DNA of 32,829 bases from Bacteriovoracaceae bacterium (lineage in GTDB: Bacteria; Bdellovibrionota; Bacteriovoracia; Bacteriovoracales; Bacteriovoracaceae), in the NCBI GenBank assembly GCA_049599895.1, contig JBMYPC010000017.1, positions 1 through 32,829 on the forward strand. The letters are read 5' to 3'. A model generated the notes under the pieces. It was given only the letters and a program-made list of their open reading frames with translations. It was not told the DNA's origin and did not search any database. The position numbers were made by a program, and so were the translations under genes. Positions 9,855 through 32,709 of the stretch are shown here, piece after piece (the stretch's first letter is position 1; each line of letters starts with the position of its first letter).

Positions 9855-12800
9855 TTAAGGAGTTCTGTAAAGATAAACAGAAGGTGAATCGACACTTGAT
9901 TCAAGAGCGGGTGCCGATATGAGAATTGTTTTACCATCAGAGCTTACATCAACTCCATGACCGACATCTGACTCAGCCCCTGTTGAATGTGGTGTGATTC
10001 TAAAGAAGTCATCAGCAGCCGTTTCTCTAAGAAGTGCAACGCCAGTTTCAACCCCTTTTTCCTTTGCCCCAACTAAAAGAGAATCTGTACCATTGCTTTG
10101 AACGGCAACACTTAGACCAAACTCTTGATAGTTATCTGTGTCGTCATTATCTGTCGCTACTGGAGCTGTATCAAGATCTGAAAGATCATAATAATAGATT
10201 CGCCCATTTGAATTATCATGCCCCGGAGCTCCAACAAAGAGGTGATCCCCAGTCATAAAAAGAGATGAGCCAAAATCATCACTCTCGTTGACTGTGGAGA
10301 GTTGATACTGAGTTGCATTTGGAAGAGTTTGAAGATCAGCGATCCAGAAGGCCTCTTTTTCTTTTGAAGAAAGAATTAATCGATTGGCATCAAGTTGCAT
10401 CACTGAACCAAAGAGAGCGTCTTCACCATTCGCTTCTGGATAAGGAATACTTTTTTCGCTTAAAAAGTTATATTCAGTTCCTGCATTTTCATAATAATAA
10501 ACGATACCTGTATTATCAGCTCTATATGGAGCAGCAACAGCAAAGCCATTTTGATCAATTTTTACGTTTTCTCCAAATCGATCGTCTGCTTCTGAGTCCG
10601 ACGGATAGATTGAGTTAAGGAGAGTGAGGCCTCCAGTTGAGTGGTACTTGTAAACAAAGACGCTACCCATATCATCACCTTGAGTGAAGAGGTCTTTTCC
10701 TGGAGCTCCAATGACTATGAAGTAGTTAGGGGCATCGAAGTGAACATCAACAGAATGACCAAATTGATCACCAGCTTCAGCATCACTGAGAGTGATTTCT
10801 TCTCTTAGCTCAATCGTATCTCCTGCAGAGTTATAATAAACGGTAACCTTGCCTTGATTAGACTTGCCGCTGCTTGCAAATCCTGGTTCGCCAACAACCG
10901 TGAGACCACTTTCCATTGCAATACTTCGCCCTAGGTCTGTCCCTTGAGTTTCACCAATGGTGTCATGAATAAGGTACCAGTCCTCACTGGTTGTATCGTA
11001 GCTATAGCTTGCTTTAGCACTACTACAAGATCCTGTTTTCGCTGCAATTGTATGAGTTGCATAAACCTCAATTGTTTGAGGAGAAACAACAGGGATAGCA
11101 AGCAGGTCGAGATCGTCCACTGTCACATCAACAAAGTCTTTGCCAGCTGGAACAACAGCAGTTCCTAATGGAACCTCGCAGTTTGTTGTTCTTTTGTAAT
11201 AAAGATTTACTGTTGCACCGGCGATAGTTCCTTTGACTCTAAAGGTTGGTTGGTCATTTTTACTTGGAGAATGGTCTAGTAGAGTTATGCTACTAGGTGT
11301 ATTCACATAAGTGTAGTTTGCAAAAACATGAGAACATGTTGAACTAAATCCTGCTTTTCTTTGCTTCACTCTAAATGTATAGCTTCCATTTGTTTCAAGG
11401 GGAGCTGATTGGATTGTAATTGATGTCTGCCCATAAGCAGTGGCGCCGATTCCAACAAGGTTAGAACAGTTTGTATCTGAGTAAAGTTTGATTTCTGCAT
11501 TCTCAAGAACTCCACCAATATCAAATTGTGGGGCATTTTGCGTGTCCGTTGCTGAGTAGCTAGCGTTGAGGGCCATTGTCATCGCCGCGCCAATATCAAG
11601 AGTGTAAGTGGTAAAGGCTTTCGAACAATCTGTAAAAGTACCATCTAATCTTCTTTTTGTTGCGTAATAGTTGTGAATTCCATCTTGCTCAACAGGGTCA
11701 GAAATGAGATCGACATAACCTAGATTACCCGCAATTCCTTTACCCATAAGGCTTGAACATTGAGAGTCACTATAGATAAAAGCTTCTTCATTTTCTGCGA
11801 CATTATAAACTCGAATCACTGGTGTGAGGCTTTCTCCTGGATTTAGTGAAAGAACTGCCAGTGTAAGACCATTATAATCATAGACTACATCATCACTACA
11901 AACTGTTTGGTGAGGATAAGTGGGGTCCATGTGTTGTTTAAAACTAAAGACCACATGATTTGATGAGAACGTAAGGTTTGAGATATCAAGAGGTGTTCCC
12001 TCGATATAAGGAATCGCTGTTCCCTGACAGCTTGGTCCCATATAAAGAGAAAAGCTTGTGGCATTTTCAAGAACAGTGCTATCAACAAAATCAAAAGTAG
12101 GGTTTCCAACACCGTAGTTATTTGGCGTGATGGTCACCTGAAGTTTAGAGTCAAGTGTCTTTGTCGGTGATCCGTATCTATAGCAACCGGAATGAGTGTC
12201 ACCATCACCTGGATCCATTTCTTGAGTTGCAATAAGGTAGTATTCCCCGTCATTAGGGATGCTGTTTGTGAGTTCTGTAATTGTATGAGTTCCTGTTCCA
12301 TCTCCTGAGTCGACAGCATTGACATTTCCATCAAAGACAAGCTTTGAGTTGTCACAAACATCATTTGATCCTTCAACAAGATAGATTTTAACTCCTGTTC
12401 CGCCAGCAATAACTTCATCAAGAACGACTTCTGGTTTTACATCTGAGCGTGGGCTTACATCATTAATCACGCTAACCTTGGGAGCTCCCTTAAGGTTATA
12501 ATTAAAACTATTGGCATTGAAGCATGAAGATGTGTAGGTTGATCCATCTGTAAACTTCTGACGAGCATATATACGATAAGACTTATTGTCGCTGTAATCA
12601 GCAAGTGTTGAAAGATCCACTGAAATTTGCTGACTGGCCCCGGCGATCGCTACAGAGGCATCCGCTGCAATCTTGTCACAAGTCTCATAATAGAGTTCGA
12701 GTGTTCCACCAGTCACCATATTGTCGACTGTAAGATCAAAAAGATGGCTTTTTCCATGAGAGGGAGAAATTGGAGCCGCTGTTTCAAAAGTAGGGGCAAT

Positions 12801-15800
12801 ATCAAGGAAGTATTCACCTAGTTTATAACATTTTGATTTATAAGTTCCACTGTCATCAGTTTGATAACCATAGATTGGGTAGATGAAGTCAAGGTCAGCG
12901 TTACTTAAAGCTGAGAGGGTTTGGGCTGCAATACTTGTTGTTGCTGCCGGAAGATCAATAGTTCCACCACTGATATTAACGGCGGCTACCGGACAACCAC
13001 TTTCATCAGTAAACCCATCAAAAGCGGTTTCAGGATCATCAATATAAAAGAGTTCAATCTTTCCATCATCGACAATTCCAGTAAGACTGACATCAGGAGT
13101 GACATCTTGTCCTGAAGCACTTGGCAGACCATCAAATGAGAAGTTGGCGCTTAAAAGATCTCGCTTAAATGTATGATCATAGCTCACCGTTGTACATTCA
13201 GAGATATCTTCGCCTTCATCTCGTACACCATTGGCGTTGGCATCATCGAACTGTCTTGCAAAGAATGTATAAGTTCCATCGAGTGGAAGGAGCATGGAAG
13301 CGTCATCTACATCGTCATCACCATCTGTGTCAGCAACCTTAACTTTTGTCGTTCCTCCTGCTGAAACATTTCTTCCTCTCACGACATCACAACCGTTTCC
13401 ATCTTTGAGGTAGCTGTCACTAACATAAGATGTTGCACCTGTGTCATCTGTAGCGGCACTAAACATTAAAATTGAGGCCAAAGAATTTGCTGATTGGGCC
13501 CCTGTGTTCCACTTGAGAGTCAAGGCTGCTCCGTCAGAGGTGAGTTTGACCTTATTTGTTTTAGAGTTATAGGTACAGGTGAAAGTGTTATTGTTTGAAG
13601 CCGCGTTTGAAGCGAGATTCATTTCTGTTGCAATCGTAGAGCAAACGGTTTCAATTGATTGATAAGTTGTTTCTTGGATTGAAATTTGAAGATCAACACC
13701 GTCATCAACAAAATCAAGATATTTATTCGTGCTTGTAATATTAATTGTGCTCGTATAGTCAGGGTCCATTGTATAGAGTTCAACTGTGTACCCAGCAATT
13801 GTTCCTACAACATCAATCTCTGGGTTATAAGAATCGTCATTTGCATTAAGAGCAATACCAGTTGGTCTCCTATCAAGAGTATAATTAATTTCTTCGCTAC
13901 ATGTTGAAGCGTATTCACCACCAGCAGTTTCTTGTCTGAAGGCGAGAGTGTAAAGTCGGTCTTCATCGATTTGGTTTGGGCCTGCGGCATTAACCGTAAA
14001 CTGAGTTGATGAGTCTCTTGTTGTCGTGATTCTGTTGAGATCAGCATTACAATCGCTTAAGCTCTTATAAGCAATGACAACATTTGTGGCGTAAATGTTA
14101 TTCATCGTAAATGATGGTGTTGTGTCATTGTCCGTCGCAGTTGTTCCTGTGGCGTAGCCTAAGTTCTTAGGTCTTCCATCGAGAGTATAGTTCACCTTTT
14201 CATAAGAACAATTTGAAGCATACTCATTGGCATCATGAGTGGCGTCTGCATCAAGATTATGAACTTGTTTAAAATAGAATTCGTAAGTTCCGTCTTCTGT
14301 AAGTCCTGGCTCTCCAACGTAGTCGAGGGCCCTTGTCAGAGTTGTTCCGCCTCTTAAGGCAGAATCCTGATCTACTAAAGTTCCACAATTTGTTGAGCCA
14401 GACTTGGTGTAAATCTGAATCATTGTTTCACTGGCATCACTGATAACATTTTCAAAATAGAGACTCGGTGTAGGATTATTGTCGACGTCAGAGCTTCCGC
14501 TTAGACTCGGATTAATAATTCTTTGATTAACGGAGTGAATCAGCGTTGGATTTGTTAAACACTCACTTGCATATCCTGGTCCAGTTAATTGAACATAAAC
14601 TTGATGAGAGAAGCTATCTGATGTGAAGTAAAGAGTTTCGGCGATTTCTCCTGCATCTCCATCTTCGTCGTTACCACCACCGTCGGTGATGATATTTGTT
14701 CCATCAACATAATCAGCTGCAACAGTACAATTGCTGTCTTTATAAAGAGTCGCTGTGATTGCAATATCTGTTGTGAGACCTGTAATTGAAACGGTCGGTT
14801 CCCATTGTTTAACATTATCATTTAAAACAATATTATTTTGTGGGTAGAAGAGAGTGTACTTGTATGGGCCTTCACAACTTGAGCGATAAGTATTTGTTCC
14901 ATTATAAACTTGTTGAATATAGTAATTTGCAATTCCATCTCCCGCTAAAACCGGAAGTTCTATGGAAGCGCCTCCTCGAACGGCGGCAATTGTTGGAGTC
15001 GAAGCATTGTCAATTGTGACAAGTGGAGCTCCAGCGCAACTATTGTCTTTGAAAACTTGAATGGAATTGTTCGCATCAAAACCTGCTCCTAAAAGATTTG
15101 TTGCATCAACAGTAATTTCAGGAGAAGGATCTGTATCTGAATAGATCTGATCAAGTGGACTCGCATCACCATCGAAGCTAAGCCCTAGGCTGCCATCAAT
15201 TGTCCATGTGACAGCTTCAGAACAATTACTTTGGTACTCTCTTGTAAGACCGTTGTAAAAAGCTTGATCGATGAAAAGCCTAATTTCTCCATCGTTAAGA
15301 TTTACGTAGTCTGTAAGATTTGAAAGCGTAATTGTGGCACTACTTGAGTTACCTGTGACTCCTGCAGGAGTGAAGTTCTCAATCATAGTCCCATTACATC
15401 TTTGAAGGCCACTTGGATCATAATAGACTTCAATGTTATTTGTTCCAGCATCCCAATTAGAAAATGTAATGTCTCTTCCTAGAAAACTTGCACTTAATGA
15501 ACTACTAATATCTTTTGGTTTTCCATCAAGAGTGAAAGTAAAGATATCTCCTAAAGGATCATTGGGATCGACAATACAGTCTGAAGCAAAATCATCGGTG
15601 GCAACAGCAACTGTTGTTCCTACTGCACTTGTTCTTTTTGAGTTAAACTGCTTGAAATAAACTGTATATTGGCCATCAGTTGGGAAGCGATCACCAGAGT
15701 CAAGCCTAATGAGAGTTGTCCCATCTTCAATTCTTTCGATATCTGAAGGGCCTTCAGAGTCGGTGATTACAGCGGTGTCACAACTTGTAAAACTCGTAGG

Positions 15801-18800
15801 AGGAGTTCCAGGAGTATAATAAGCTCTTAAGCTATTATTTGGAGACGCCACTGATCCAGATGTTGTATTGGTGACATCAAAACCTGTTCTTGCAACATTT
15901 GTTGTAAGAGAATCAATTGTCGTGTCTTGAAGATCTGCAACAGTTGGAGTTGCTTCAATATTGTAGACAAGATATTGATTGAGACATCCATAGTTGTTTG
16001 GAATTCTTCCATCAGCGTCATTCCAAGTGCCAGATGCATCTAGAGAAGCTTCAGTTCTTTCAGGTGTTCCATAGTTACTATTATCTTCTGAAACAATTCG
16101 AAGACCAATGTAGTAAAGACCATCTTTTGTAAAGACTGTCCCTTCTGAACCTACTAGTGGATCATTCGCCGTCGTATTTTGGTTATCAGTTAGAGCTGTT
16201 AGGTTAGTGACATCTTCAAGCCCGATGGTCGTAGTATCAGGGTCATTGGGATCAGTTCTTTTCCAGTCAGAAATAAGTGTTCCATTTTCACAGATATCGG
16301 AGACTGGGTCGACTCCTGGAGTAAAGTTGTCAGCTGAGATTGCATAAAGACCAATAATATTTTTATAAAAACCAGGACTGTGCTGATCACTACTATAGCT
16401 TGAAGCTCCAGTATCATCAATATTATTAAAACCGAGAATCTCTTCAGCTGTCGAGTTCACATGACTCCAAAGGATGTCGAAGTTTCCTGAGCCTGAACTA
16501 ATGGTAAAGCTTCCGGTTAATTCATTGAAGGAAACTGTAAATGTGTAAGCCGAAGTGGCTGCAGCTGCAGCGGCATCGAGTTTAGTTTGAATCTCTGTCG
16601 CAAGGTTTGCTCCGGTAGTATAACGAGCCGAAGCTAAAACAGCCTCGAAAGTGAAAACACTGTCAAAGACTCTTATTGTATTATTCGTGACATCAATTTC
16701 AAAAACTCCATCTGATAGGGCCCAGTCTCCTGTATAAGTGAGGGCCCCGGTATCATCAGCGGCATTTGAGAAACCTAAAAGTTGCTCAGCATTTGTTGTT
16801 GCTGATGACCAAAGAATATTAAAGAGTGCTCCATCTGAAGAAATGTTAAACCTTTCACTTGAGACGTTATAACTACAAGTGAAGTTATCATCAGCATGGG
16901 GATCTGAGGCAAGGGACATTTGGTTTGCAACTTCAGTACAGAGAGCCTGAGGAGTGGCATAAGTTCCCGGGCCTAAAGTCGCTGTTAAGAACGTTGCCGA
17001 AGTATCTTGAAAGGCAATTTGATCATTTGTTGCCGCTGTGACTGTTGCAAAATTTCCTGTTTTTTGAGCAGGGTTATTATCTTCAATATCAATAATTTCA
17101 ATGCTTGGATTAAGTTTTGAAGAAGGACTCACTGTTCCTGTTGCAAAACGCATTTGCGTTGAAACCCCATCAACTTTAAAGGTAAGAGGACTACTACAAT
17201 CATCAAAGTTTGAATTATACTGATCTTTGTATTGGGCCACATAAACTTTATAAATTCCATTTGAAGTGATTGATCCTTGGGCAATTTGATATTTCCCTCC
17301 AGGCATAGAAGGTTCTAAAACGTTTGTTCCCGCACATTTAAGATCGACTGTTGTCGGAAAGCCTGGGGCTGCATCAGCATTATCTTGGTATTGATAGACA
17401 TAAACTCCAATAGTCGAGCCTTCAAAATCATTGTCAAACTTTAGCGTTGGAGTTGTGGTATTGATAACAGAGATCGACTCATTTGTTCCTTGGTTATCCC
17501 AAGTATACGGATTCGTCTCGACAAAAATTTGTGATTCAAATTCAACATTTTTAATAACAGCATCAAAATTGTAGTTGTGAATTGTCGTTGTACAGTCAGA
17601 TTCATAATAAGGAGCGACTCCCACCCCAAGGCCATCACTATCTCTTACGATCGCATAACGAAACTCAAAACTATCACTTTTCTTAAAAGGCGTTGTTGGG
17701 CTGGTCAGGTCATGATCAAAAGCAAAGGTTTCATCAACTCCCACAATATTAGCGAGGGGGGCACCTGTGACAAGGTTACCAGCTGAACAGGTATCAGTGA
17801 CGGAAACATCATATACTTTAAGATAAACATCTGTGGCTCCATTATAAGTATCTTCAATGCCAAAGTGTGGGTCCGGAGAAATTGTTCCAGAAGTTGATGT
17901 CAGAAGAGATGTTGGAGCACCATCAATTTCATAAGTCTCTGAGACTTGACTACATCGGGACTCAAAATTTCCAAGAACTTGCTTTGCATAGACTGTGTGA
18001 ACGCGATCGGCGAGGGGAAGAGTGTAACCACCATTTCCAGCGACTCCATTTTTAAGATCAATAGTCACTGTTCTTTGGGATTGATCATTTTCAAAATCAG
18101 CAGCTTCTCCTAATGTTCCATTGTTATTGGCATCATAGAGAAATTCATTTGTACAACTTGAATCACTATAAAGATGAAGTTCTGTTTTAGTTCCGGTACT
18201 GACCAGAAGATCATTGAGAACAAACTTTGGATTAAAATCATAGCTTGTACGAATCGGAGTTGAAGCCTCTCTTTGAATACTTGTTGGCATAGCATCGAAA
18301 ACATAATTGACGCTTACACAATTTGAAGTAAAGGCTACACCTTTTTTTAAGCGAGCTGAAATTGGCCAATTTTGGTTATCGGTTGAGGCGACTCCAGCGA
18401 TTGTTGCAGTAAGGTCAATTTCTTCTGTGATTGCACTCGTCGATCCACCAATAGTACCAGATTTAATCGCTCCACCTGTACAAGTTCCATTAGCAAAGAA
18501 CTCATAATCGTAATCGACAACCAGTCCAGTTAAGACAACTTTTGGCTTTAAGTTATTACTGGGTGAGATTGTCTCGGGAGCAAGAGCAAGGCTTGGAGAA
18601 GCCTCCATTCTGTAATCCACATAGTTTGAACAATCATCAACACCATCGGCATTGTTGTTTGTACTATAAACAAAAAACCTTGAGTCACCTTCCGTTGTAA
18701 TGAGACCATCATCAAGTTCAAAACTAAGGGTCTCTGTAGAGGCGTCATAAGATTCATTTTTTACAGCAACAGAGTCACCTGGAATACAGACGACCGTTCC

Positions 18801-20957
18801 AGCGGCTGACTTTAAGAGCTTAATGTTATTCCCACCTGCTCCAATCCCTGCTCCGTATTCTGCAGCAGAGATGTTCTCAACTTGAAACTTAGGGTTCAGG
18901 TTTGAAGATGGGGAAGGAGTGATTCTTGTGAGGTTCTTTGGACTTCGATCAAGAATATAATCAATTTCTAGACAGTCACTAGTATAAGCTCCTGCTCCAA
19001 TTGTCACAGTTTCGATAAAATAAAAATAATATTGATCGTCAGGATCAAGCCCTCCAGGATAACTTCCACCAGCTGGATTAAAAGTAATATTTTCGCTTAA
19101 TGCTGTTGTTGTCGTATAGGTATGATCAACACCACCAACACAACCATTGGCAAGTTGAGCTGTTTGAACATAAATATCAATTCTTGAGTTATCAAGAGTG
19201 TTTGAGACTGTAAAAACTGGTTGAGAGTTTGTACTGATCCTTGTTTGGGTTGGACCATAGTTAACGCTAAAGTTTGTTCCCGTAATCTCATAGCTCACGC
19301 TATCAACAATAGGTGTACAGTCTGATTCTTGAGTTTCTCCAGCATCGAGAAATTGAGTTAATGAAAAGTTTCGTCTTCCTCCAACTCCAACTGCTTGGGG
19401 CTTTAGAATTGAAACGATCACATTATTTCCAGAGACTGCTGAAGTATAGTCAACTCCTGAAGTCAGTCTGGTTGCTCCGTTACAATTTGTTGATTCAAAC
19501 ACGTTCACTTTATTTAGAGGTGAAATATTCGCGGCCACAAGTTTTGGGAATGGGTCTGAACTAAGGTTGGGGGTTGATGGATCAAGCCCTTCAAGGATCG
19601 GGGTTGTTTCAACTGTATAAGAAATAGGCCCTACACAAGTCGAATCAACTCCATTGATTTTTTGTCTGATATAAAAATTATAAGTTCCTTCTGGGTCGTC
19701 TACTAAGTCTTCTGTTGAGGTGATTGAAATGTTTCCACCTGTGTGTCCTACGGCCATGAGAACTTTAGCCTCAGAGTCAGCTTCACATTTATCAGCATCA
19801 CCGTCATCTTGGTATAAATAAACATCGGCATCACTATGAACATTTTCTGCTATAAATGCAGGGAGGAACTTTGAGTTTGTCGGGGTTTGATAGGACTTAT
19901 CAAGAGCAAAGTTCTTGGGAGCAGAGTCGAGAGTATAAATTAAAGGATTTTTTGAACAAGGAGATTCAAGCCCTGGACCAAAACCTGTTCCCGGTGTTTT
20001 TTCCTGGGTGAAATAGAAATTATAGACTTTGTCTTGAGTGAGAACTGTTTCATCAATGGCCATCTCACCTAATGTCGGGGCAATCGGGTGAGCAAGGTTG
20101 TCTGGGTCAAGGACGAGGTCTGGAGCTCCCGAACACGCGCTGTTTTGATAGAGAAAAACATCAGAATAGATTCCACCAACTTGGATGTGATTATTAATCT
20201 TAAATCGGATTTGATTTTTGTTATCTGTATTTGATTGTCCTGCAGAGAGATAAGGATCCAGTGGGGCAGAGTCAACGGTATAAATATCACTGGCATCTGA
20301 ACAAGGAATTTGTTCACCATTGATTTCTGTTGTTGCATAGAATTGATAAGCTCCATCTTCAAGAGTTTCCGCTAGTCCGAGAACTAAGCTTGCGCTTCCA
20401 TTAATGTCTGCAACTGCTGAACCTACTGAGCTGAGGCATAGGGGGTCTCGATAAAAGAATACAGGGACGCCACTTTGGCCACCGGTGACTGTAAGCCTTG
20501 GCCTTCTTTCAATATTAGTTGTAGGACCTGGAAACACTGTCGGGGGATTAAGAGTGTAACCATCAGAGAAGTTGTAAAGAACTGTTGTGGGAAGACATCC
20601 TGTTCTATTTCCTTCTCTGTCAGCAACGCGAATTTTGTAAGGATAGTTTCCGTTATTAACAAGAGCTGCTGAAGTTAAGAAGACTGAGCCTTTTGTCTTA
20701 ACAGTTTTAATGTCTCTCACTCTTTCACAGCGGCTACCAGAATAGAGAGTGACTTTTTGACCAATGAGAAGACTTCCGGTTACCTCAAAAACAGGTTTCT
20801 TAGAATCTGAGACTTGATAAAGTCTTAATGTATAATTTCCTTTAGGAGTTTGAGCGGCTTCTTTGGATTCTTTTTCTTGCAACGTGGGATTACAACTTAC
20901 GAGCACCGTAAGTAAACTTGCAATCAATAAATGGTTCCACGTTTTAAATAACAACAT
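9855..20957 (-). CDS. Giant repetitive surface lipoprotein / adhesin-like protein (~3700 aa): Ig-like repeats plus C-terminal FG-GAP beta-propeller
   Basis: Single ORF (track start TTG 20999). ATG 20957 gives MLLFKTWNHLLIASLLTVLVSC with lipobox. About 26 repeats by eye of P.F.V...LY....C...DG.Y.FY..Q...S.C....Y.LD..P. C-terminal FG-GAP motifs include FGHSVDV/IVIGAPG, FGSSL/LFVGAPG and FGLSVAV/LLVGA. Confidence 0.9.
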   Translation of the reverse strand: MLLFKTWNHLLIASLLTVLVSCNPTLQEKESKEAAQTPKGNYTLRLYQVSDSKKPVFEVTGSLLIGQKVTLYSGSRCERVRDIKTVKTKGSVFLTSAALVNNGNYPYKIRVADREGNRTGCLPTTVLYNFSDGYTLNPPTVFPGPTTNIERRPRLTVTGGQSGVPVFFYRDPLCLSSVGSAVADINGSASLVLGLAETLEDGAYQFYATTEINGEQIPCSDASDIYTVDSAPLDPYLSAGQSNTDNKNQIRFKINNHIQVGGIYSDVFLYQNSACSGAPDLVLDPDNLAHPIAPTLGEMAIDETVLTQDKVYNFYFTQEKTPGTGFGPGLESPCSKNPLIYTLDSAPKNFALDKSYQTPTNSKFLPAFIAENVHSDADVYLYQDDGDADKCEADSEAKVLMAVGHTGGNISITSTEDLVDDPEGTYNFYIRQKINGVDSTCVGPISYTVETTPILEGLDPSTPNLSSDPFPKLVAANISPLNKVNVFESTNCNGATRLTSGVDYTSAVSGNNVIVSILKPQAVGVGGRRNFSLTQFLDAGETQESDCTPIVDSVSYEITGTNFSVNYGPTQTRISTNSQPVFTVSNTLDNSRIDIYVQTAQLANGCVGGVDHTYTTTTALSENITFNPAGGSYPGGLDPDDQYYFYFIETVTIGAGAYTSDCLEIDYILDRSPKNLTRITPSPSSNLNPKFQVENISAAEYGAGIGAGGNNIKLLKSAAGTVVCIPGDSVAVKNESYDASTETLSFELDDGLITTEGDSRFFVYSTNNNADGVDDCSNYVDYRMEASPSLALAPETISPSNNLKPKVVLTGLVVDYDYEFFANGTCTGGAIKSGTIGGSTSAITEEIDLTATIAGVASTDNQNWPISARLKKGVAFTSNCVSVNYVFDAMPTSIQREASTPIRTSYDFNPKFVLNDLLVSTGTKTELHLYSDSSCTNEFLYDANNNGTLGEAADFENDQSQRTVTIDLKNGVAGNGGYTLPLADRVHTVYAKQVLGNFESRCSQVSETYEIDGAPTSLLTSTSGTISPDPHFGIEDTYNGATDVYLKVYDVSVTDTCSAGNLVTGAPLANIVGVDETFAFDHDLTSPTTPFKKSDSFEFRYAIVRDSDGLGVGVAPYYESDCTTTIHNYNFDAVIKNVEFESQIFVETNPYTWDNQGTNESISVINTTTPTLKFDNDFEGSTIGVYVYQYQDNADAAPGFPTTVDLKCAGTNVLEPSMPGGKYQIAQGSITSNGIYKVYVAQYKDQYNSNFDDCSSPLTFKVDGVSTQMRFATGTVSPSSKLNPSIEIIDIEDNNPAQKTGNFATVTAATNDQIAFQDTSATFLTATLGPGTYATPQALCTEVANQMSLASDPHADDNFTCSYNVSSERFNISSDGALFNILWSSATTNAEQLLGFSNAADDTGALTYTGDWALSDGVFEIDVTNNTIRVFDSVFTFEAVLASARYTTGANLATEIQTKLDAAAAAATSAYTFTVSFNELTGSFTISSGSGNFDILWSHVNSTAEEILGFNNIDDTGASSYSSDQHSPGFYKNIIGLYAISADNFTPGVDPVSDICENGTLISDWKRTDPNDPDTTTIGLEDVTNLTALTDNQNTTANDPLVGSEGTVFTKDGLYYIGLRIVSEDNSNYGTPERTEASLDASGTWNDADGRIPNNYGCLNQYLVYNIEATPTVADLQDTTIDSLTTNVARTGFDVTNTTSGSVASPNNSLRAYYTPGTPPTSFTSCDTAVITDSEGPSDIERIEDGTTLIRLDSGDRFPTDGQYTVYFKQFNSKRTSAVGTTVAVATDDFASDCIVDPNDPLGDIFTFTLDGKPKDISSSLSASFLGRDITFSNWDAGTNNIEVYYDPSGLQRCNGTMIENFTPAGVTGNSSSATITLSNLTDYVNLNDGEIRLFIDQAFYNGLTREYQSNCSEAVTWTIDGSLGLSFDGDASPLDQIYSDTDPSPEITVDATNLLGAGFDANNSIQVFKDNSCAGAPLVTIDNASTPTIAAVRGGASIELPVLAGDGIANYYIQQVYNGTNTYRSSCEGPYKYTLFYPQNNIVLNDNVKQWEPTVSITGLTTDIAITATLYKDSNCTVAADYVDGTNIITDGGGNDEDGDAGEIAETLYFTSDSFSHQVYVQLTGPGYASECLTNPTLIHSVNQRIINPSLSGSSDVDNNPTPSLYFENVISDASETMIQIYTKSGSTNCGTLVDQDSALRGGTTLTRALDYVGEPGLTEDGTYEFYFKQVHNLDADATHDANEYASNCSYEKVNYTLDGRPKNLGYATGTTATDNDTTPSFTMNNIYATNVVIAYKSLSDCNADLNRITTTRDSSTQFTVNAAGPNQIDEDRLYTLAFRQETAGGEYASTCSEEINYTLDRRPTGIALNANDDSYNPEIDVVGTIAGYTVELYTMDPDYTSTINITSTNKYLDFVDDGVDLQISIQETTYQSIETVCSTIATEMNLASNAASNNNTFTCTYNSKTNKVKLTSDGAALTLKWNTGAQSANSLASILMFSAATDDTGATSYVSDSYLKDGNGCDVVRGRNVSAGGTTKVKVADTDGDDDVDDASMLLPLDGTYTFFARQFDDANANGVRDEGEDISECTTVSYDHTFKRDLLSANFSFDGLPSASGQDVTPDVSLTGIVDDGKIELFYIDDPETAFDGFTDESGCPVAAVNISGGTIDLPAATTSIAAQTLSALSNADLDFIYPIYGYQTDDSGTYKSKCYKLGEYFLDIAPTFETAAPISPSHGKSHLFDLTVDNMVTGGTLELYYETCDKIAADASVAIAGASQQISVDLSTLADYSDNKSYRIYARQKFTDGSTYTSSCFNANSFNYNLKGAPKVSVINDVSPRSDVKPEVVLDEVIAGGTGVKIYLVEGSNDVCDNSKLVFDGNVNAVDSGDGTGTHTITELTNSIPNDGEYYLIATQEMDPGDGDTHSGCYRYGSPTKTLDSKLQVTITPNNYGVGNPTFDFVDSTVLENATSFSLYMGPSCQGTAIPYIEGTPLDISNLTFSSNHVVFSFKQHMDPTYPHQTVCSDDVVYDYNGLTLAVLSLNPGESLTPVIRVYNVAENEEAFIYSDSQCSSLMGKGIAGNLGYVDLISDPVEQDGIHNYYATKRRLDGTFTDCSKAFTTYTLDIGAAMTMALNASYSATDTQNAPQFDIGGVLENAEIKLYSDTNCSNLVGIGATAYGQTSITIQSAPLETNGSYTFRVKQRKAGFSSTCSHVFANYTYVNTPSSITLLDHSPSKNDQPTFRVKGTIAGATVNLYYKRTTNCEVPLGTAVVPAGKDFVDVTVDDLDLLAIPVVSPQTIEVYATHTIAAKTGSCSSAKASYSYDTTSEDWYLIHDTIGETQGTDLGRSIAMESGLTVVGEPGFASSGKSNQGKVTVYYNSAGDTIELREEITLSDAEAGDQFGHSVDVHFDAPNYFIVIGAPGKDLFTQGDDMGSVFVYKYHSTGGLTLLNSIYPSDSEADDRFGENVKIDQNGFAVAAPYRADNTGIVYYYENAGTEYNFLSEKSIPYPEANGEDALFGSVMQLDANRLILSSKEKEAFWIADLQTLPNATQYQLSTVNESDDFGSSLFMTGDHLFVGAPGHDNSNGRIYYYDLSDLDTAPVATDNDDTDNYQEFGLSVAVQSNGTDSLLVGAKEKGVETGVALLRETAADDFFRITPHSTGAESDVGHGVDVSSDGKTILISAPALESSVDSPSVYLYRTP

Positions 20958-20983
20958 AGTTTTTTTCTTAAACCCCAATTCTC

Positions 20984-21011
20984 TTTTCGGTAAAAACAAA
21001 ACAAGAATTTA
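20984..21011 (-). promoter_or_regulatory. Possible sigma28 (FliA)-type promoter of the giant gene
   Basis: TAAA-N16-ACCGAAAA versus consensus TAAA-N15-GCCGATAA; spacer is one nt long. Confidence 0.4.
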
Positions 21012-26566: not shown

Positions 26567-28030
<1,464 letters not shown>

Positions 28031-28070: not shown

Positions 28071-28085
28071 AAGACCTTCTCATCA

Positions 28086-28398
28086 ACTAAAACCGAAGGT
28101 TTTAGCCCCCGGAGGGGATCAGGAAGCGTCAGTGCCCGGTCTACACGAAGTTGATAACTAGAAGTTAGGAGTTAAAAATAACTTAAAGCCATTAACCTTC
28201 TCATCAAAACAGTTTGATGACCAAAAGGAGAAATATGAGACTAAAAACGTGAGTTTTTAGCCCCCGGAGGGGATTAGGAAGCGTTAGCGCCCGGTACTTA
28301 CGAAGTTGATTACTGGAAGTTAGTCGCAAAAAATAACTTAAAAAATCATTTAACCTTCTCATCAAAACGATTTGATGACCAAAAGGAGAGACATGAGA
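28086..28398 (+). repeat. Diverged tandem duplication (~155 bp x2) of the structured hpf leader
   Basis: Units 28086-28240 and 28240-28398 share TTTTAGCCCCCGGAGGGGAT, AGGAAGCGT, CGAAGTTGAT, GAAGTTAG, AAAAATAACTTAAA, TAACCTTCTCATCAAAAC, TTTGATGACCAAAAGGAGA and ATGAGA. Confidence 0.92.
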
Positions 28399-28761
28399 GT
28401 AACAATCGAATTTCAGCAACTAGAACACACACCTTCTCTTGATGAAAAAATTAAGCAGAAGTCACAGAAGTTTGAAAAATATTTTCGAAACGAAGTGGGC
28501 CTCAAGTGGCGTTGTTATGTGAAAAGCGGAGTCCATCACGCAGAGTGTACGATTCATGGGCATAGAGAAACAATTCATGCCAAAGCTCATTCAGACAACC
28601 TTTATAAGACTCTAGATAAAGTGTGTGAGAAGCTTGAAAAACAGATTAATAAGTCGAAGCAGAAAGTGAAAAATAAGATTCACAGAAAGCAAGGCAACGT
28701 GATTTTCTTTGAGCCTGAGATTGCTTGGGGAGAATTTGAAGCTGAAAAAGAAGCAGCTTAA
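28393..28761 (+). CDS. hpf: Ribosome hibernation promoting factor (HPF/RaiA family)
   Basis: MRVTIEFQQLEHTPSLDEKI...HAKAHSDNLYKTLDKVCEKLEKQI; conserved position after rpoN. ATG 28393 has SD AAGGAG (track start 28372). Confidence 0.92.
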   Translation: MRVTIEFQQLEHTPSLDEKIKQKSQKFEKYFRNEVGLKWRCYVKSGVHHAECTIHGHRETIHAKAHSDNLYKTLDKVCEKLEKQINKSKQKVKNKIHRKQGNVIFFEPEIAWGEFEAEKEAA

Positions 28762-28786
28762 AACAATTAACAAATTAAAACGCTAT

Positions 28787-28813
28787 AAGCCTCCAATATT
28801 TGGAGGCTTTTTT
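28787..28813 (+). terminator. Rho-independent terminator after hpf
   Basis: AAGCCTCCAA-TAT-TTGGAGGCTT followed by a T run. Confidence 0.9.
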
Positions 28814-28826
28814 ATTGAAAGTCTCT

Positions 28827-29049
28827 GCAAAAAAGTGCCAGGCAAAAAAGTGCCAGGTACTTTTAAGAGATTGTAAGAAAACCAAGCATTCAAAGCAATG
28901 TCTCAAAAAAATAATCTTCAAAATTGAAATGCAACTCTTTTAAACTCCTAAGAATTCATTAGAAAATATTTTGAAATCTTACTTTTTCTAAAAAGTACCT
29001 GGCACTTTTTTGCTTTTTTGTGGCACTTTTTTGCCTGGCACTTTTTTGC
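28827..29049. repeat. REP/REPIN-like inverted repeat element with internal short tandem repeats
   Basis: 14-mer GCAAAAAAGTGCCA at 28827 and 28842 (+) and at 29000, 29021 and 29036 (-). Each arm holds the imperfect palindrome AAAAGTGCCAGGTACTTTT (28846-28864; reverse at 28991-29009). Confidence 0.85.
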
Positions 29050-29142
29050 TTTTTTGAAAAAGAAAATTCTTCCATCTTCAGAGAACTTTGTATTGGAGTA
29101 GGGAAATGCATCAATGTATTTTTCAATATTAATGTTCATCAT
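29050..29142 (-). pseudogene. Probable 5' remnant of a gene truncated at the repeat element
   Basis: ATG overlaps the terB-like stop (TAATG). MMNINIEKYIDAFPYSNTKFSEDGRIFFF is protein-like, then reads into repeat-derived AKKCQAKKCH. Confidence 0.5.
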
Positions 29143-29660
29143 TAGCCTTTTAATGATTGGAGTTTGTCGAGAACTGTGGCCTTTGCGGAGATAAAGTGTT
29201 TGTGTTCGAGAAGAAGAGCTTTGGTGATATTTCGAATTTCTTCAGTCTCAACACTCGCAACACCTCCATCACTCGCAGCAAGGGCAAAGAGAGCTTCCAA
29301 AAGATGATAGCGATTATCATTATCCATGCGATCATTAAGGGCGTAGCAATAACGATGGTTTTCAGCTCCAGAGAGTGTCTGGATTTCATCAATGGCAAGT
29401 GTGGCAAGCTTTTCACTTTTTTCTCTTCCAAAGTCTGTCCAAGTTTCAAGAGCGGTGATCATATGATCTTTTTCTTTCGGCTGAATTTTTAAATCTGCAT
29501 AGGCGACTCTCGCTAATAGGCCGGCGATACAGGTCCAAGTGATTAAATCTTCCTCACTTCCATCAGGAAAGATTACTTTCGCCTTACTATGAAGTCCACT
29601 GTGATATGGATCTTTAGAATCATTAGAAGTTAAGTTTTTAAAAGCGTCCCAGAATCCCAT
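29142..29660 (-). CDS. TerB family (tellurite resistance TerB-like) protein
   Basis: AGLLARVAYADLKIQPKE and LLEALFALAASDGGVASVETEEIRNI. ATG 29660 (MGFWDAF) has SD AAGGA; track start is 29777. Confidence 0.85.
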   Translation of the reverse strand: MGFWDAFKNLTSNDSKDPYHSGLHSKAKVIFPDGSEEDLITWTCIAGLLARVAYADLKIQPKEKDHMITALETWTDFGREKSEKLATLAIDEIQTLSGAENHRYCYALNDRMDNDNRYHLLEALFALAASDGGVASVETEEIRNITKALLLEHKHFISAKATVLDKLQSLKG

Positions 29661-29787
29661 AAATTTTCCTTGATCATCATTTTGAGAAGGCATGATATCG
29701 CCGGTAAGTTCTAAATTACAAGTCGAGCATTGCACTAATAAAGTAAACACCAAGTGTTTCACTCCGTCATATGGCAAGCTTTATAAG

Positions 29788-29851
29788 TAGACTAAAAGCG
29801 TCTTTGCTTTTAGGCGCCGCAGGCGACTAGCAAGCGTAAGCGCGCGGTCTA
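29788..29851 (+). repeat. Third copy of the ~60-nt three-hairpin motif
   Basis: TAGA-CTAAAAGC/GCTTTTAG-G-CGCC GCA GGCG-ACTAGCAA-GCG TAAG CGC-GCGGTCTA, colinear with 28086-28143 and 28240-28295. Confidence 0.75.
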
Positions 29852-29896
29852 GCTAAGTCTCAACTTGATATTCAAACTTAGACAAATATATAATTT

Positions 29897-29969: not shown

Positions 29970-30317
29970 TTGAAGGTGAAGACTTTAAACAATATTTGGA
30001 AAGCTCAAAGTGAAGACCATGAAGGTGATTCGGATTTGGCCACCATAGAGGAAGTCAAAGTCAAGAAACCTTCACGGTACAAAGTGCTGCTTCACAATGA
30101 TGACTATACAACTATGGAGTTTGTGATCTTTATTTTGCAATCCATCTTTGGAAAAACCTTTGATGAGGCAAAAGTTGTTATGCTCAAGGTCCATAATGAA
30201 GGTACAGGAGTCTGTGGGATTTATACCCATGAAATAGCTGAAACTAAATCTTCAAAGGTTAGGCAGCTTGCTAAAGAAAATGGTCATCCTCTTCTTTGCT
30301 CCATTGAAGAGGAATGA
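29970..30317 (+). CDS. clpS: ATP-dependent Clp protease adaptor ClpS
   Basis: PSRYKVLLHNDDYTTMEFV, MLKVHNEG, EIAETK, HPLLCSIEE. GTG 29976 is an alternative start. Confidence 0.97.
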   Translation: MKVKTLNNIWKAQSEDHEGDSDLATIEEVKVKKPSRYKVLLHNDDYTTMEFVIFILQSIFGKTFDEAKVVMLKVHNEGTGVCGIYTHEIAETKSSKVRQLAKENGHPLLCSIEEE

Positions 30318-30342: not shown

Positions 30343-32709
30343 ATGATGAGTCGTAAATTAGAACAAATCATTAACTCCTCAATTAAACTCGCCAATGTGC
30401 GAAGACATGAATATTTAACTCTTGAGTCGATTCTTTTATCGATGCTTCAAGAAGACGATGTCGTAAAAGAAATTTTAAAGGGCTGTGGTGCTGATACAGA
30501 GAGCATGACAAATGAATTAGAACAATTTCTTGATGATGAAGGTAATTTTTCCATTCTTTCAGAAGGTCAAATTCATGACCTCGGTGAAAAACAGTTCGTC
30601 GACGATGAGCTGAGGCGACTCGCGGGAGAAAGTGGAATTCGCTACCAACCTGAGATCTCCATGTCCCTTCAAAGAGTCATTCAAAGAGCGGCACTTCATG
30701 TGCAGTCATCTGGAAAAAGAGAAATTAAAGGAACCAATCTTCTGGTTGCCATGTTTCAAGAAAAAGAGAGCTTTGCTCTTTATACGATTCAAAAACAAGG
30801 GGTCAATCGACTCGATATTGTGAAAACCATTAGTCACAACCTAGACAAACCTACGACCCAGGAAGACGCTGATCGATTTGATTCTCTTCGTGGAGAGAAA
30901 ACTATTGAGGGTGAGAAAAAGGAGACTCCCCTTGAGAAATTTTCTGTCAATTTAAACGAACAGGTAAAAAAAGGAAGAATTGACCCTCTGATTGGTCGAG
31001 ACAAAGAACTCAAAAGAATTGTTCAAGTCCTTTGTAGGAGGAGAAAAAATAATCCTCTCTTAGTTGGTGAGGCGGGAGTGGGAAAAACGGCCCTTGCTGA
31101 AGGTCTTGCTTGGTCCATTGAAAACGGAAAAATCCCTGAAGTTCTTAAAGAGGCTACGGTTTATTCTTTAGATATGGCGGCACTCCTTGCTGGATCTAAA
31201 TATCGAGGTGATTTTGAGCAGAGACTCAAAGGCGTTCTTAAGCAACTTGAGGAATTGGAAGAAAAAGGTGAACTGAGTGTGCTTTTTATTGATGAGTTTC
31301 ATACCTTAATGGGTGCAGGATCCACTTCAGGTGGAAGCATGGATGCTTCAAATTTATTAAAACCAGCTTTGAGCCAAGGCCGACTTCGTTGTCTTGGAAG
31401 TACGACTTTTACTGAATACCGAAAATTTATCGAAAAAGACTCAGCGTTTGCGAGAAGGTTTCAAAAAATTGATGTGAATGAGCCATCAAAAGACGAAACT
31501 TTAAAGATCTTAGAAGGGCTCAAGCCTAAGTTTGAAGAGTTTCACAGCGTGAAATATGGGCCGAGTGTCCTAAAAGCAGCTGTTGATCTTTCTGATCGCT
31601 ACATCACAGATCGTAAAAATCCTGACAAGGCCATTGACCTGATTGATGAAGCGGGGGCAGCGATTCAACTTTTGCCGCCAAGTCAGAGAAAGTCTCAGGT
31701 GACTAAGAGAGATATCGAACAAATTGTTGGACTTGTTGCAAGAATTCCTAAAATTCAGGTCAATAAAGATGATAAAGAGCAGCTCAAATCTCTTGAATCG
31801 AACCTGAAACTTCTTATATTCGGCCAAGATAAGGCCGTTGAGCAAGTGAGCAATGCCATTTTGATGGCAAAGTCGGGACTTCGAGATGAAGGAAAGCCTC
31901 TTGGATCTTTTCTTTTTGTTGGGCCAACTGGAGTGGGGAAAACGGAACTGGCAAAACAACTTTCAAATCATCTGAATTGTCATATTGAGAGATTTGATAT
32001 GTCCGAATATATGGAAAAGCACACTGTCGCGAAGCTTATTGGGGCGCCTCCGGGTTATGTGGGGTATGAAAGTGGCGGTTTGTTAACTGATGCGATTAAT
32101 AAAAATCCTCATTCTGTTGTTTTACTCGATGAAATTGAAAAAGCTCACCCAGATATCTTCAACGTTCTTCTGCAAGTGATGGATCACGGAACTTTAACTG
32201 ATGCTCAAGGACGTGAAACGAATTTTAAAAACACAATTATCATTATGACGAGTAATGCAGGGGCGAGAGAAGCAGAAAATCCTTCAATTGGACTACAAAG
32301 TGAAGCAACTTTGGATGGAACAGGGGCCTTAAAAGATTTAAAACGAGAAAAAGCGATAAAAAATACGTTTAGCCCTGAATTTCGTAACCGTTTAGATGCA
32401 ATAATTCCTTTTAATCCACTTGGAATGAAGCAAATTTTATCGATTGTAGACAAATTTTTGGTTCAATTAGAGCAAAAACTTCTTTCAAAAGGTGTAAATG
32501 TCACTTTTGATCACCAAGTTAAGGAATGGCTCGCTACAATTGGCTTTGATCCGAAGATGGGTGCACGTCCAATGGAGAGAATGATCGATCAAAAACTCAA
32601 AAAACCTCTTTCAAAAGAAATTTTATTTGGAAAATTAGAGAAAGGTGGCTCTGTTTCTATAAAAATGGATGAAAAAAGAGAGAATATAGAGTTATTTTTT
32701 GAAGATTAA
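30343..32709 (+). CDS. clpA: ATP-dependent Clp protease ATP-binding subunit ClpA
   Basis: Two AAA+ modules (GEAGVGKT, GPTGVGKTE), RRRKNNP, RFDMSEYMEKHTV. No ClpB/C M-domain; downstream of clpS. Confidence 0.96.
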   Translation: MMSRKLEQIINSSIKLANVRRHEYLTLESILLSMLQEDDVVKEILKGCGADTESMTNELEQFLDDEGNFSILSEGQIHDLGEKQFVDDELRRLAGESGIRYQPEISMSLQRVIQRAALHVQSSGKREIKGTNLLVAMFQEKESFALYTIQKQGVNRLDIVKTISHNLDKPTTQEDADRFDSLRGEKTIEGEKKETPLEKFSVNLNEQVKKGRIDPLIGRDKELKRIVQVLCRRRKNNPLLVGEAGVGKTALAEGLAWSIENGKIPEVLKEATVYSLDMAALLAGSKYRGDFEQRLKGVLKQLEELEEKGELSVLFIDEFHTLMGAGSTSGGSMDASNLLKPALSQGRLRCLGSTTFTEYRKFIEKDSAFARRFQKIDVNEPSKDETLKILEGLKPKFEEFHSVKYGPSVLKAAVDLSDRYITDRKNPDKAIDLIDEAGAAIQLLPPSQRKSQVTKRDIEQIVGLVARIPKIQVNKDDKEQLKSLESNLKLLIFGQDKAVEQVSNAILMAKSGLRDEGKPLGSFLFVGPTGVGKTELAKQLSNHLNCHIERFDMSEYMEKHTVAKLIGAPPGYVGYESGGLLTDAINKNPHSVVLLDEIEKAHPDIFNVLLQVMDHGTLTDAQGRETNFKNTIIIMTSNAGAREAENPSIGLQSEATLDGTGALKDLKREKAIKNTFSPEFRNRLDAIIPFNPLGMKQILSIVDKFLVQLEQKLLSKGVNVTFDHQVKEWLATIGFDPKMGARPMERMIDQKLKKPLSKEILFGKLEKGGSVSIKMDEKRENIELFFED

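Follow-up and report, generated by a model that had tools for sequence, protein, structure and literature searches.

Repetitive extragenic palindromic (REP) sequences, with their BIME and REPIN arrangements and RAYT partners, are extragenic, GC-rich and lineage-specific hairpin repeats that occur in mosaic clusters. As described in PMC6006769, they are recognised as single-stranded DNA and carry a GTAG or GTGG guide 0–2 nt before the hairpin; their ends often supply a stop codon (PMC3733652). Pneumococcal BOX elements have a constant module at each end and exchangeable ones in between, and frequently provide the gene upstream with its stop codon (36 cases in the account of PMC3049150). Regarding the fold itself, the mini-hairpins GCGNNAGC and GCGNAGC are reported to be extraordinarily stable in DNA and much less stable as RNA, a property of the DNA form that standard models miss (PMC13037366).

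The window, by which we mean the whole 32,829-nt stretch of Bacteriovoracaceae DNA analysed here, contains three copies of a core repeat of 55–60 bp, each where a first-pass annotation had reported a three-hairpin motif. Their exact spans and the neighbouring features are as follows.

26567–28030, + strand: rpoN (context).
28074–28086, + strand: left member of a 13-bp direct-repeat pair without mismatches, abutting stem 1 of copy 1; possibly a target duplication.
28087–28140, + strand: copy 1; stem 1 of 8 bp with a GAA loop, stem 2 with a GGA loop.
Within 28087–28140, + strand: stem 3 of copy 1, comprising GC-GTCA-GT, the AA/GC loop and the outer stem.
28141–28194, + strand: tail of copy 1, the first ~20 nt resembling the family tail by eye.
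28192–28240, + strand: first copy of a 49-bp hpf leader (hairpin, ribosome-binding site, ATG AGA), interrupted by copy 2.
28195–28207, + strand: right copy of the 13-bp direct repeat.
28241–28295, + strand: copy 2, heading the second unit of a 155-bp tandem duplication.
28296–28349, + strand: tail of copy 2, its agreement with the MITE-like end (14/29) being at background level.
28350–28398, + strand: the 49-bp hpf leader again, here continuing into the probable hpf start at 28393.
28393–28761, + strand: hpf/yfiA family gene (context).
29792–29848, + strand: copy 3, located between clpS and a divergently oriented TerB-domain gene (− strand).
29862–29894, + strand: tail of copy 3, agreeing with the MITE-like end in 19/29 positions (null 0.2%).
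29970–30317, + strand: clpS (context), followed by clpA at 30343–32709.

Contigs from a second study span copies 1–2 and copy 3 with zero differences, so that the window copies are not an assembly artefact. Copies 1 and 2 head the two units of one 155-bp tandem duplication (134 matches over 154/158 nt); hence the window contains two independent insertions and not three. In the tail of copy 1 a MITE-like end is not recognisable (13/29). The tail of copy 3 holds a promoter-like TTGATA-18-TATAAT facing clpS, with TATAAT at 29889–29894. Antisense terminators over copies 1–2 number 3 against 1.5 expected, which carries no weight. The hairpin of the hpf leader (28200–28223 and 28358–28381) resembles, by eye, a middle module of the family with its tip deleted, and an older insertion may therefore underlie the leader. 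Elsewhere in the window, a 3714-aa ORF on the − strand (9855–20999) is without an NCBIfam match.

The three copies are members of a dispersed repeat that is scattered about 50 times through the genome, instead of a motif present three times as first described. Iterated nhmmer finds 42–43 full copies (E below 1e-4), and a covariance model built from 40 copies of this genome, the window's three included, gives at least 49 matches at E up to 0.001, from at most 52 scored candidates. The window copies score 66–76 bits with this model, and the next match in the window scores 9 bits. Pairwise identity among the 40 copies ranges from 52 to 98%, with a mean of 74%. In many copies, further hairpin modules separate stem 3 from stem 1 or 2, and some family members are such modules alone; with composite modules counted, the genome holds 106 clusters. 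This is a layout of BOX type, with fixed end modules and variable middle modules. The comparison with Rfam proposed in the annotation returned nothing that reached the gathering score, and all 15 weak matches lie outside the copies. In the open-access literature we found no description of the repeat, and no article pairing Bacteriovorax with repetitive extragenic palindromic sequences.

Across the 40 copies, 91.4% of cells are paired. Double-sided changes occupy 87 cells as compared to 30.5 in shuffles (reached in 0/500), and 11 pairs display a double change (5/500 shuffles). The early proposal that structure is kept while sequence changes is supported by covariation as well as by changes on a tree of the copies. 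On that tree, which uses the same columns and hence provides a rough check, the linker base and the base after stem 3 change about 12 and 14 times per side and only 15 times as a pair, in agreement with the G..C versus C..G swap noted before; for control column pairs, changes come close to the sum of the sides. Stems 1 and 2 are as originally drawn. Stem 3 is a hairpin as well, in a different register: the proposed GCG-TNAG-YGC is rejected, its pairs holding only in 37, 39 and 38 of 40 copies, and RC-GNNA-GY fits better, both pairs holding in 40/40. Below this tip lies a 2x2 AA/GC loop (38/40 copies, swapped to GC/AA in one), followed by the outer stem, where G-U type pairs occur in 14, 9 and 20 of 40 copies at three positions.

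Loop sequences point to DNA as the folded form. Loop 2 is GNA in 38/40 copies and loop 3 is GNNA in 38/40 (33 GNYA, 5 GNRA), each closed by an invariant C-G, so that the C-GNA-G and C-GNNA-G patterns of DNA mini-hairpins are found in 38/40 copies each; 25/40 have a loop 1 with G first and A last. When folded as RNA, single copies do no better than shuffles (z −0.06 to −1.45); folded as DNA, they do modestly better (z +0.07 to −2.57). Such weak scores would fit a fold whose mini-hairpin stability escapes standard models. Conversely, the many G-U type pairs in outer stem 3 suit RNA and count against the DNA reading, and computation is described as unable to tell a DNA from an RNA fold reliably (PMC5737381). 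On balance, the folded form is probably single-stranded DNA.

For the analysis of position, neighbouring genes were taken as the longest ORFs of 80 aa or more, a cut-off by which short genes are missed. A core match is present in 66 clusters. The 57 of these with two neighbours fall into 31 co-directional, 18 divergent and 8 convergent spacers, a distribution like that of background spacers (651, 347 and 140). Within co-directional spacers the repeat is sense in 24 cases and antisense in 7 (p=0.003; as the copies are mutually related, this and the other tests of position overstate the effect). According to the first-pass annotation, many copies in random orientation would have spoken for a mobile repeat over a riboregulator; the copies are indeed many, and their orientation is not random. 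Replication strand, with direction deduced from third-position skew, gives no significant bias (33 leading and 22 lagging copies, p=0.18, with 11 left unassigned; in divergent plus convergent spacers, 11 and 12). Of 27 copies that follow a gene on their own strand, 17 have the stop codon of that gene no farther than 13 nt from loop 1 (~9% expected), often inside stem 1. Several of these copies are located in ribosomal-protein operons, and the upstream genes include what we take, from their translations, to be rplK, rpsL, rpsS, infA, rpsK, rpoA, rpsI, groES and atpG. Clusters are also found no farther than 150 bp from 11/30 tRNA genes. Genome-wide, the neighbours are functionally unrelated and largely housekeeping genes.

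The repeat is restricted to few relatives. The covariance model matches 6/100 other genomes of the family, with 1–6 matches each; a strict pattern is found in 0/40 relatives, and a stem-3 pattern in 2/300 other genomes of the phylum, both within the family. A search of viral contigs for a phage origin gave 0 matches with three patterns. A single metagenome match and one of three genome-collection matches lie within coding sequence of unrelated organisms and are taken as chance. Comparison of two genomes of one genus (G083 and G114) displays 3/3 tested sites filled in one and empty in the other; the flanks are only 73–86% identical, so these empty sites cannot fix the element ends. Two further sites are common to both genomes, which suggests that some copies persist for long. 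The rpoN–hpf spacer measures roughly 80–110 bp in 5 relatives and 362 bp here. As separate observations, G114 (L066) carries three tandem core copies at 99-bp spacing where its congener has none, and in G167 (L169 1580-6150) two composite elements enclose a 4.4-kb segment, and each adjoins the 3' fragment of a tRNA-Glu; the segment has genes that by eye look globin-, Rrf2- and sensor-kinase-like, and no whole tRNA was found there.

The search for a mobilising gene has so far returned negative results. Within 17 loci around Y1_Tnp, GIY-YIG, DUF559 and integrase genes the covariance model gave 0 matches, including 7 integrase loci, and copies flanking a RAYT were sought around 8 Y1_Tnp loci, likewise with 0 matches. 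Module searches beside 41 mobiliser-candidate loci found nothing except one tail-like match, at a GIY-YIG locus of G058, which turned out to be an end of the MITE common in that genome. Y1_Tnp, GIY-YIG, DUF559, integrases, reverse transcriptase, DDE_3 and IS1595 were accordingly rejected as mobilisers, as none adjoins the core. One carrier genome (G044) has 3 copies yet is without a Y1_Tnp match. As the assembly is split into 266 contigs, with several clusters located at their ends, a repeated gene, e.g. a second RAYT, could be missing from it.

Other repeats and genes came to light during this search. The sole Y1_Tnp gene of this genome is flanked by a different repeat (L001 1356-2061), which is also present in the window at 28827–29049 as an inverted pair ~100 bp apart and forms 20 mostly paired clusters in the genome. 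The motifs of this gene, NHYH and YVYQNP, resemble subclass 2.1 as presented in PMC6006769, a subclass for which that account reports no REP. RAYT-like genes of relatives carry inverted flanks of their own. A DRT8-like defence reverse transcriptase (L143 264-1817, C155, E 3e-138) adjoins a small RNA-like gene end. In G148 (L233, L244), small GIY-YIG genes lie directly behind tRNA-Ala and tRNA-Met, with a different hairpin repeat before them. Integron attC sites have an invariant GTT at their 3' end, stand in cassette arrays and have an integrase nearby; this identity was rejected for the repeat, with GTTA in only 8/40 copies, housekeeping genes as neighbours and the integrase loci without a match.

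Based on this dataset, we propose, with a probability of roughly 0.55, that the repeat is a lineage-specific, non-autonomous mobile element with three predicted single-stranded DNA mini-hairpins, pasted into transcribed DNA by a trans-acting nuclease. The folded sense strand would be recognised by this putative nuclease, for which the invariant AA/GC loop and the G-A-capped tips may serve as recognition sites. The presumptive target would be the non-template strand of strongly transcribed genes, often at TA. Copies would survive where the host gene stays intact, spared by a supplied or overlapped stop codon, by a replacement promoter in the tail, or by a duplicated flanking target sequence. 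The arrangement of copies in the window would likely have arisen by one insertion into the rpoN–hpf spacer, marked by the 13-bp repeat, and a subsequent duplication starting at the left end of the element; copy 3 would be a separate insertion, the tail of which may now promote clpS. By analogy with REP and RAYT, the mobilising enzyme could conceivably be of Y1/HUH type, which we consider a tentative and somewhat doubtful assignment. Long duplications at some copies count against insertion of the REP/IS200 type, which to our knowledge is not known to give them.

These long duplications are what target-primed copying would explain. In this model, synthesis is primed from a free 3' end, left by a nick or a stalled fork within a strongly transcribed gene; an existing element and a variable tail are copied, and synthesis then resumes upstream, thereby duplicating the target. 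The enzyme would be a reverse transcriptase or a repair polymerase. Flanking direct repeats scoring at least 15 are found at 10/95 clusters and at 0/600 controls. Across several genera, direct repeats at the ends of tRNAs, tmRNA and genes measure 10–96 bp; they usually sit flush with or close to the left end, and the tails after them vary in length. In other genera, the repeats of related composites at tRNA and tmRNA ends span 24–96 bp. PMC2853133 and PMC2266710 describe long duplications of variable length that have no known mechanism. However, the repeats concern a minority of insertions, and several other composites in those genera display none. Among 39 core copies only copy 1 (13 bp) and the rpsS copy (10 bp) have an exact flush repeat of at least 10 bp, by which a general target duplication for core copies is rejected; copy 2 has a 49-bp flanking repeat with mismatches. 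An empty site for a long-repeat insertion was sought in genus g76 and none was found, the congener's locus being itself rearranged. The only reverse transcriptase of this genome is DRT8-like and not flanked by the repeat, and reverse transcriptases were found in only 4/9 carrier genomes. Furthermore, some duplications extend, by eye, past RNA ends, which argues against an RNA template. Target-primed copying hence appears improbable. A joint reading, which we rate as unlikely albeit a little less so, is an undescribed class of DNA-mini-hairpin elements entering by target priming at the ends of highly transcribed genes, tRNA and tmRNA, without a transposase of REP or MITE type; it would leave duplications of 10–100 bp and supply stop codons or promoters so that the host gene survives.

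The tails and left ends bring up a TA-targeting MITE moved by a DDE transposase. Its left end would be TATA and its right end Correia-like, and the three hairpins would travel between them as passengers. TA directly precedes stem 1 in 17/39 core copies (7.8% in background), left flanks being mostly TATA, GATA and similar. A 29-nt TATA-ended tail has 22 matches in this genome, 18 of them directly after stem 3, and agrees in 24/29 positions with the terminal repeat found in G058 on an element of 165 bp that likewise ends in TATA. A promoter-like site (at least 10/12) follows stem 3 at 16–18 nt in 9/61 tails, compared to 2% in controls, reminiscent of the promoter-like tails of Correia elements (PMC3184786). 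On the other hand, under half of the copies carry the tail, and terminal inverted repeats are absent from the elements of this genome, where both ends of one young copy share only TATA. DDE_3 was found in none of 10 genomes and IS1595 in none of 7; in 16 loci the G058 element stands without the three-hairpin core. Covariation and the 10–96 bp duplications would also be left unexplained, and we consider this origin as improbable as target-primed copying. The G058 element itself (L279 1501-1665) is a MITE with 27-bp terminal repeats whose ends agree in 24/27 positions; it has shorter forms of ~40 bp, 71 tail-pattern matches in its genome, and no DDE_3 or IS1595 match.

However the repeat has spread, its structure might be kept for a role in mRNA, with post-stop hairpins stabilising or cutting the message and tuning operon stoichiometry. 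Sense bias and stop-codon position would agree with such a role, as would the G-U type pairs in outer stem 3 and the 6 of 66 clusters found on the ribosomal-protein contig against 0.9 expected (a contig chosen post hoc); similar roles are described for REP, ERIC and BIME repeats (PMC6006769, PMC3049150, PMC3184786). Yet GNA triloops and GNYA tetraloops are poor RNA loops, the divergent spacers hold 18/57 copies, as many as by chance and some of them upstream of their own promoter-like tail, and sites are not conserved across genera. A selected mRNA role therefore seems slightly less probable still. A novel RNA that regulates stress and proteostasis genes (hpf, clpS-clpA) in cis, as a riboswitch or leader, is a reading that the annotation had raised in view of covariation and to which the missing Rfam match and the 42/57 copies with a sense-oriented downstream gene would conform. 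It is very improbable and already largely refuted, as the motif is present in 0/9 orthologous hpf/clpS loci of 5 relatives, downstream genes are unrelated in function, the best-scoring promoter-like site for clpS is found downstream of copy 3, and copies 1–2 are one duplication.

A covarying motif upstream of stress genes may thus be a mobile repeat read as DNA, which would be a trap for RNA-motif discovery. The ~50 copies offer a natural set under selection for DNA mini-hairpin loops, in a repeat that is strongly drawn to the stop codons of highly expressed genes without a visible mobiliser. If the mobiliser is neither RAYT nor DDE, a new route would exist by which small repeats spread and rewire promoters.

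Compared with known systems, the repeat shares with REP/BIME/REPIN its extragenic, GC-rich, lineage-specific and mosaic character, the stop codons at its ends and, as predicted here, recognition as single-stranded DNA. Unlike REP, it has three hairpins instead of one, is mostly single and directional instead of forming inverted pairs, and shows some long target duplications; the RAYT of this genome does not adjoin it and has a repeat of its own. With BOX it shares fixed outer and swappable middle modules, a likeness of layout drawn from descriptions of BOX, and the provision of stop codons; the terminal inverted repeats, target duplications and proposed IS partner of BOX were not found. TA-type MITEs (Correia, ERIC, RUP) are alike in the TA at the left end, the TATA-ended tail and the outward promoter-like site; they differ in their inverted termini and in the tail that most copies here are without, and the present repeat is GC-rich and has no matching transposase found. 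DNA mini-hairpins of the d(GCGNAGC)/d(GCGNNAGC) type (phage G4 origin, ssiA, N4 promoter) have the same C-GNA-G and C-GNNA-G loops on one strand; unlike these, the repeat is chromosomal and multicopy, with neither a replication-strand bias nor a phage match. Insertions of IS1549, IS1634 and restriction-modification genes are also associated with direct repeats that vary in length and in part lie at tRNA ends; such insertions encode a transposase or nuclease, whereas the element here is non-coding and ~60–300 bp long. As neither a GTAG/GTGG guide before stem 1 nor a RAYT neighbour was found, and inverted termini are absent, we file the repeat under neither REP nor MITE: of the REP-like single-stranded DNA element considered in the first-pass annotation, the way of working is retained and the membership is not. 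Most likely, it works like REP or BOX, as a non-autonomous mosaic repeat recognised as folded single-stranded DNA. New in this analysis are its covarying core with DNA-type loops, its preference for stop codons and for one strand, the empty sites, and the MITE-like tail.
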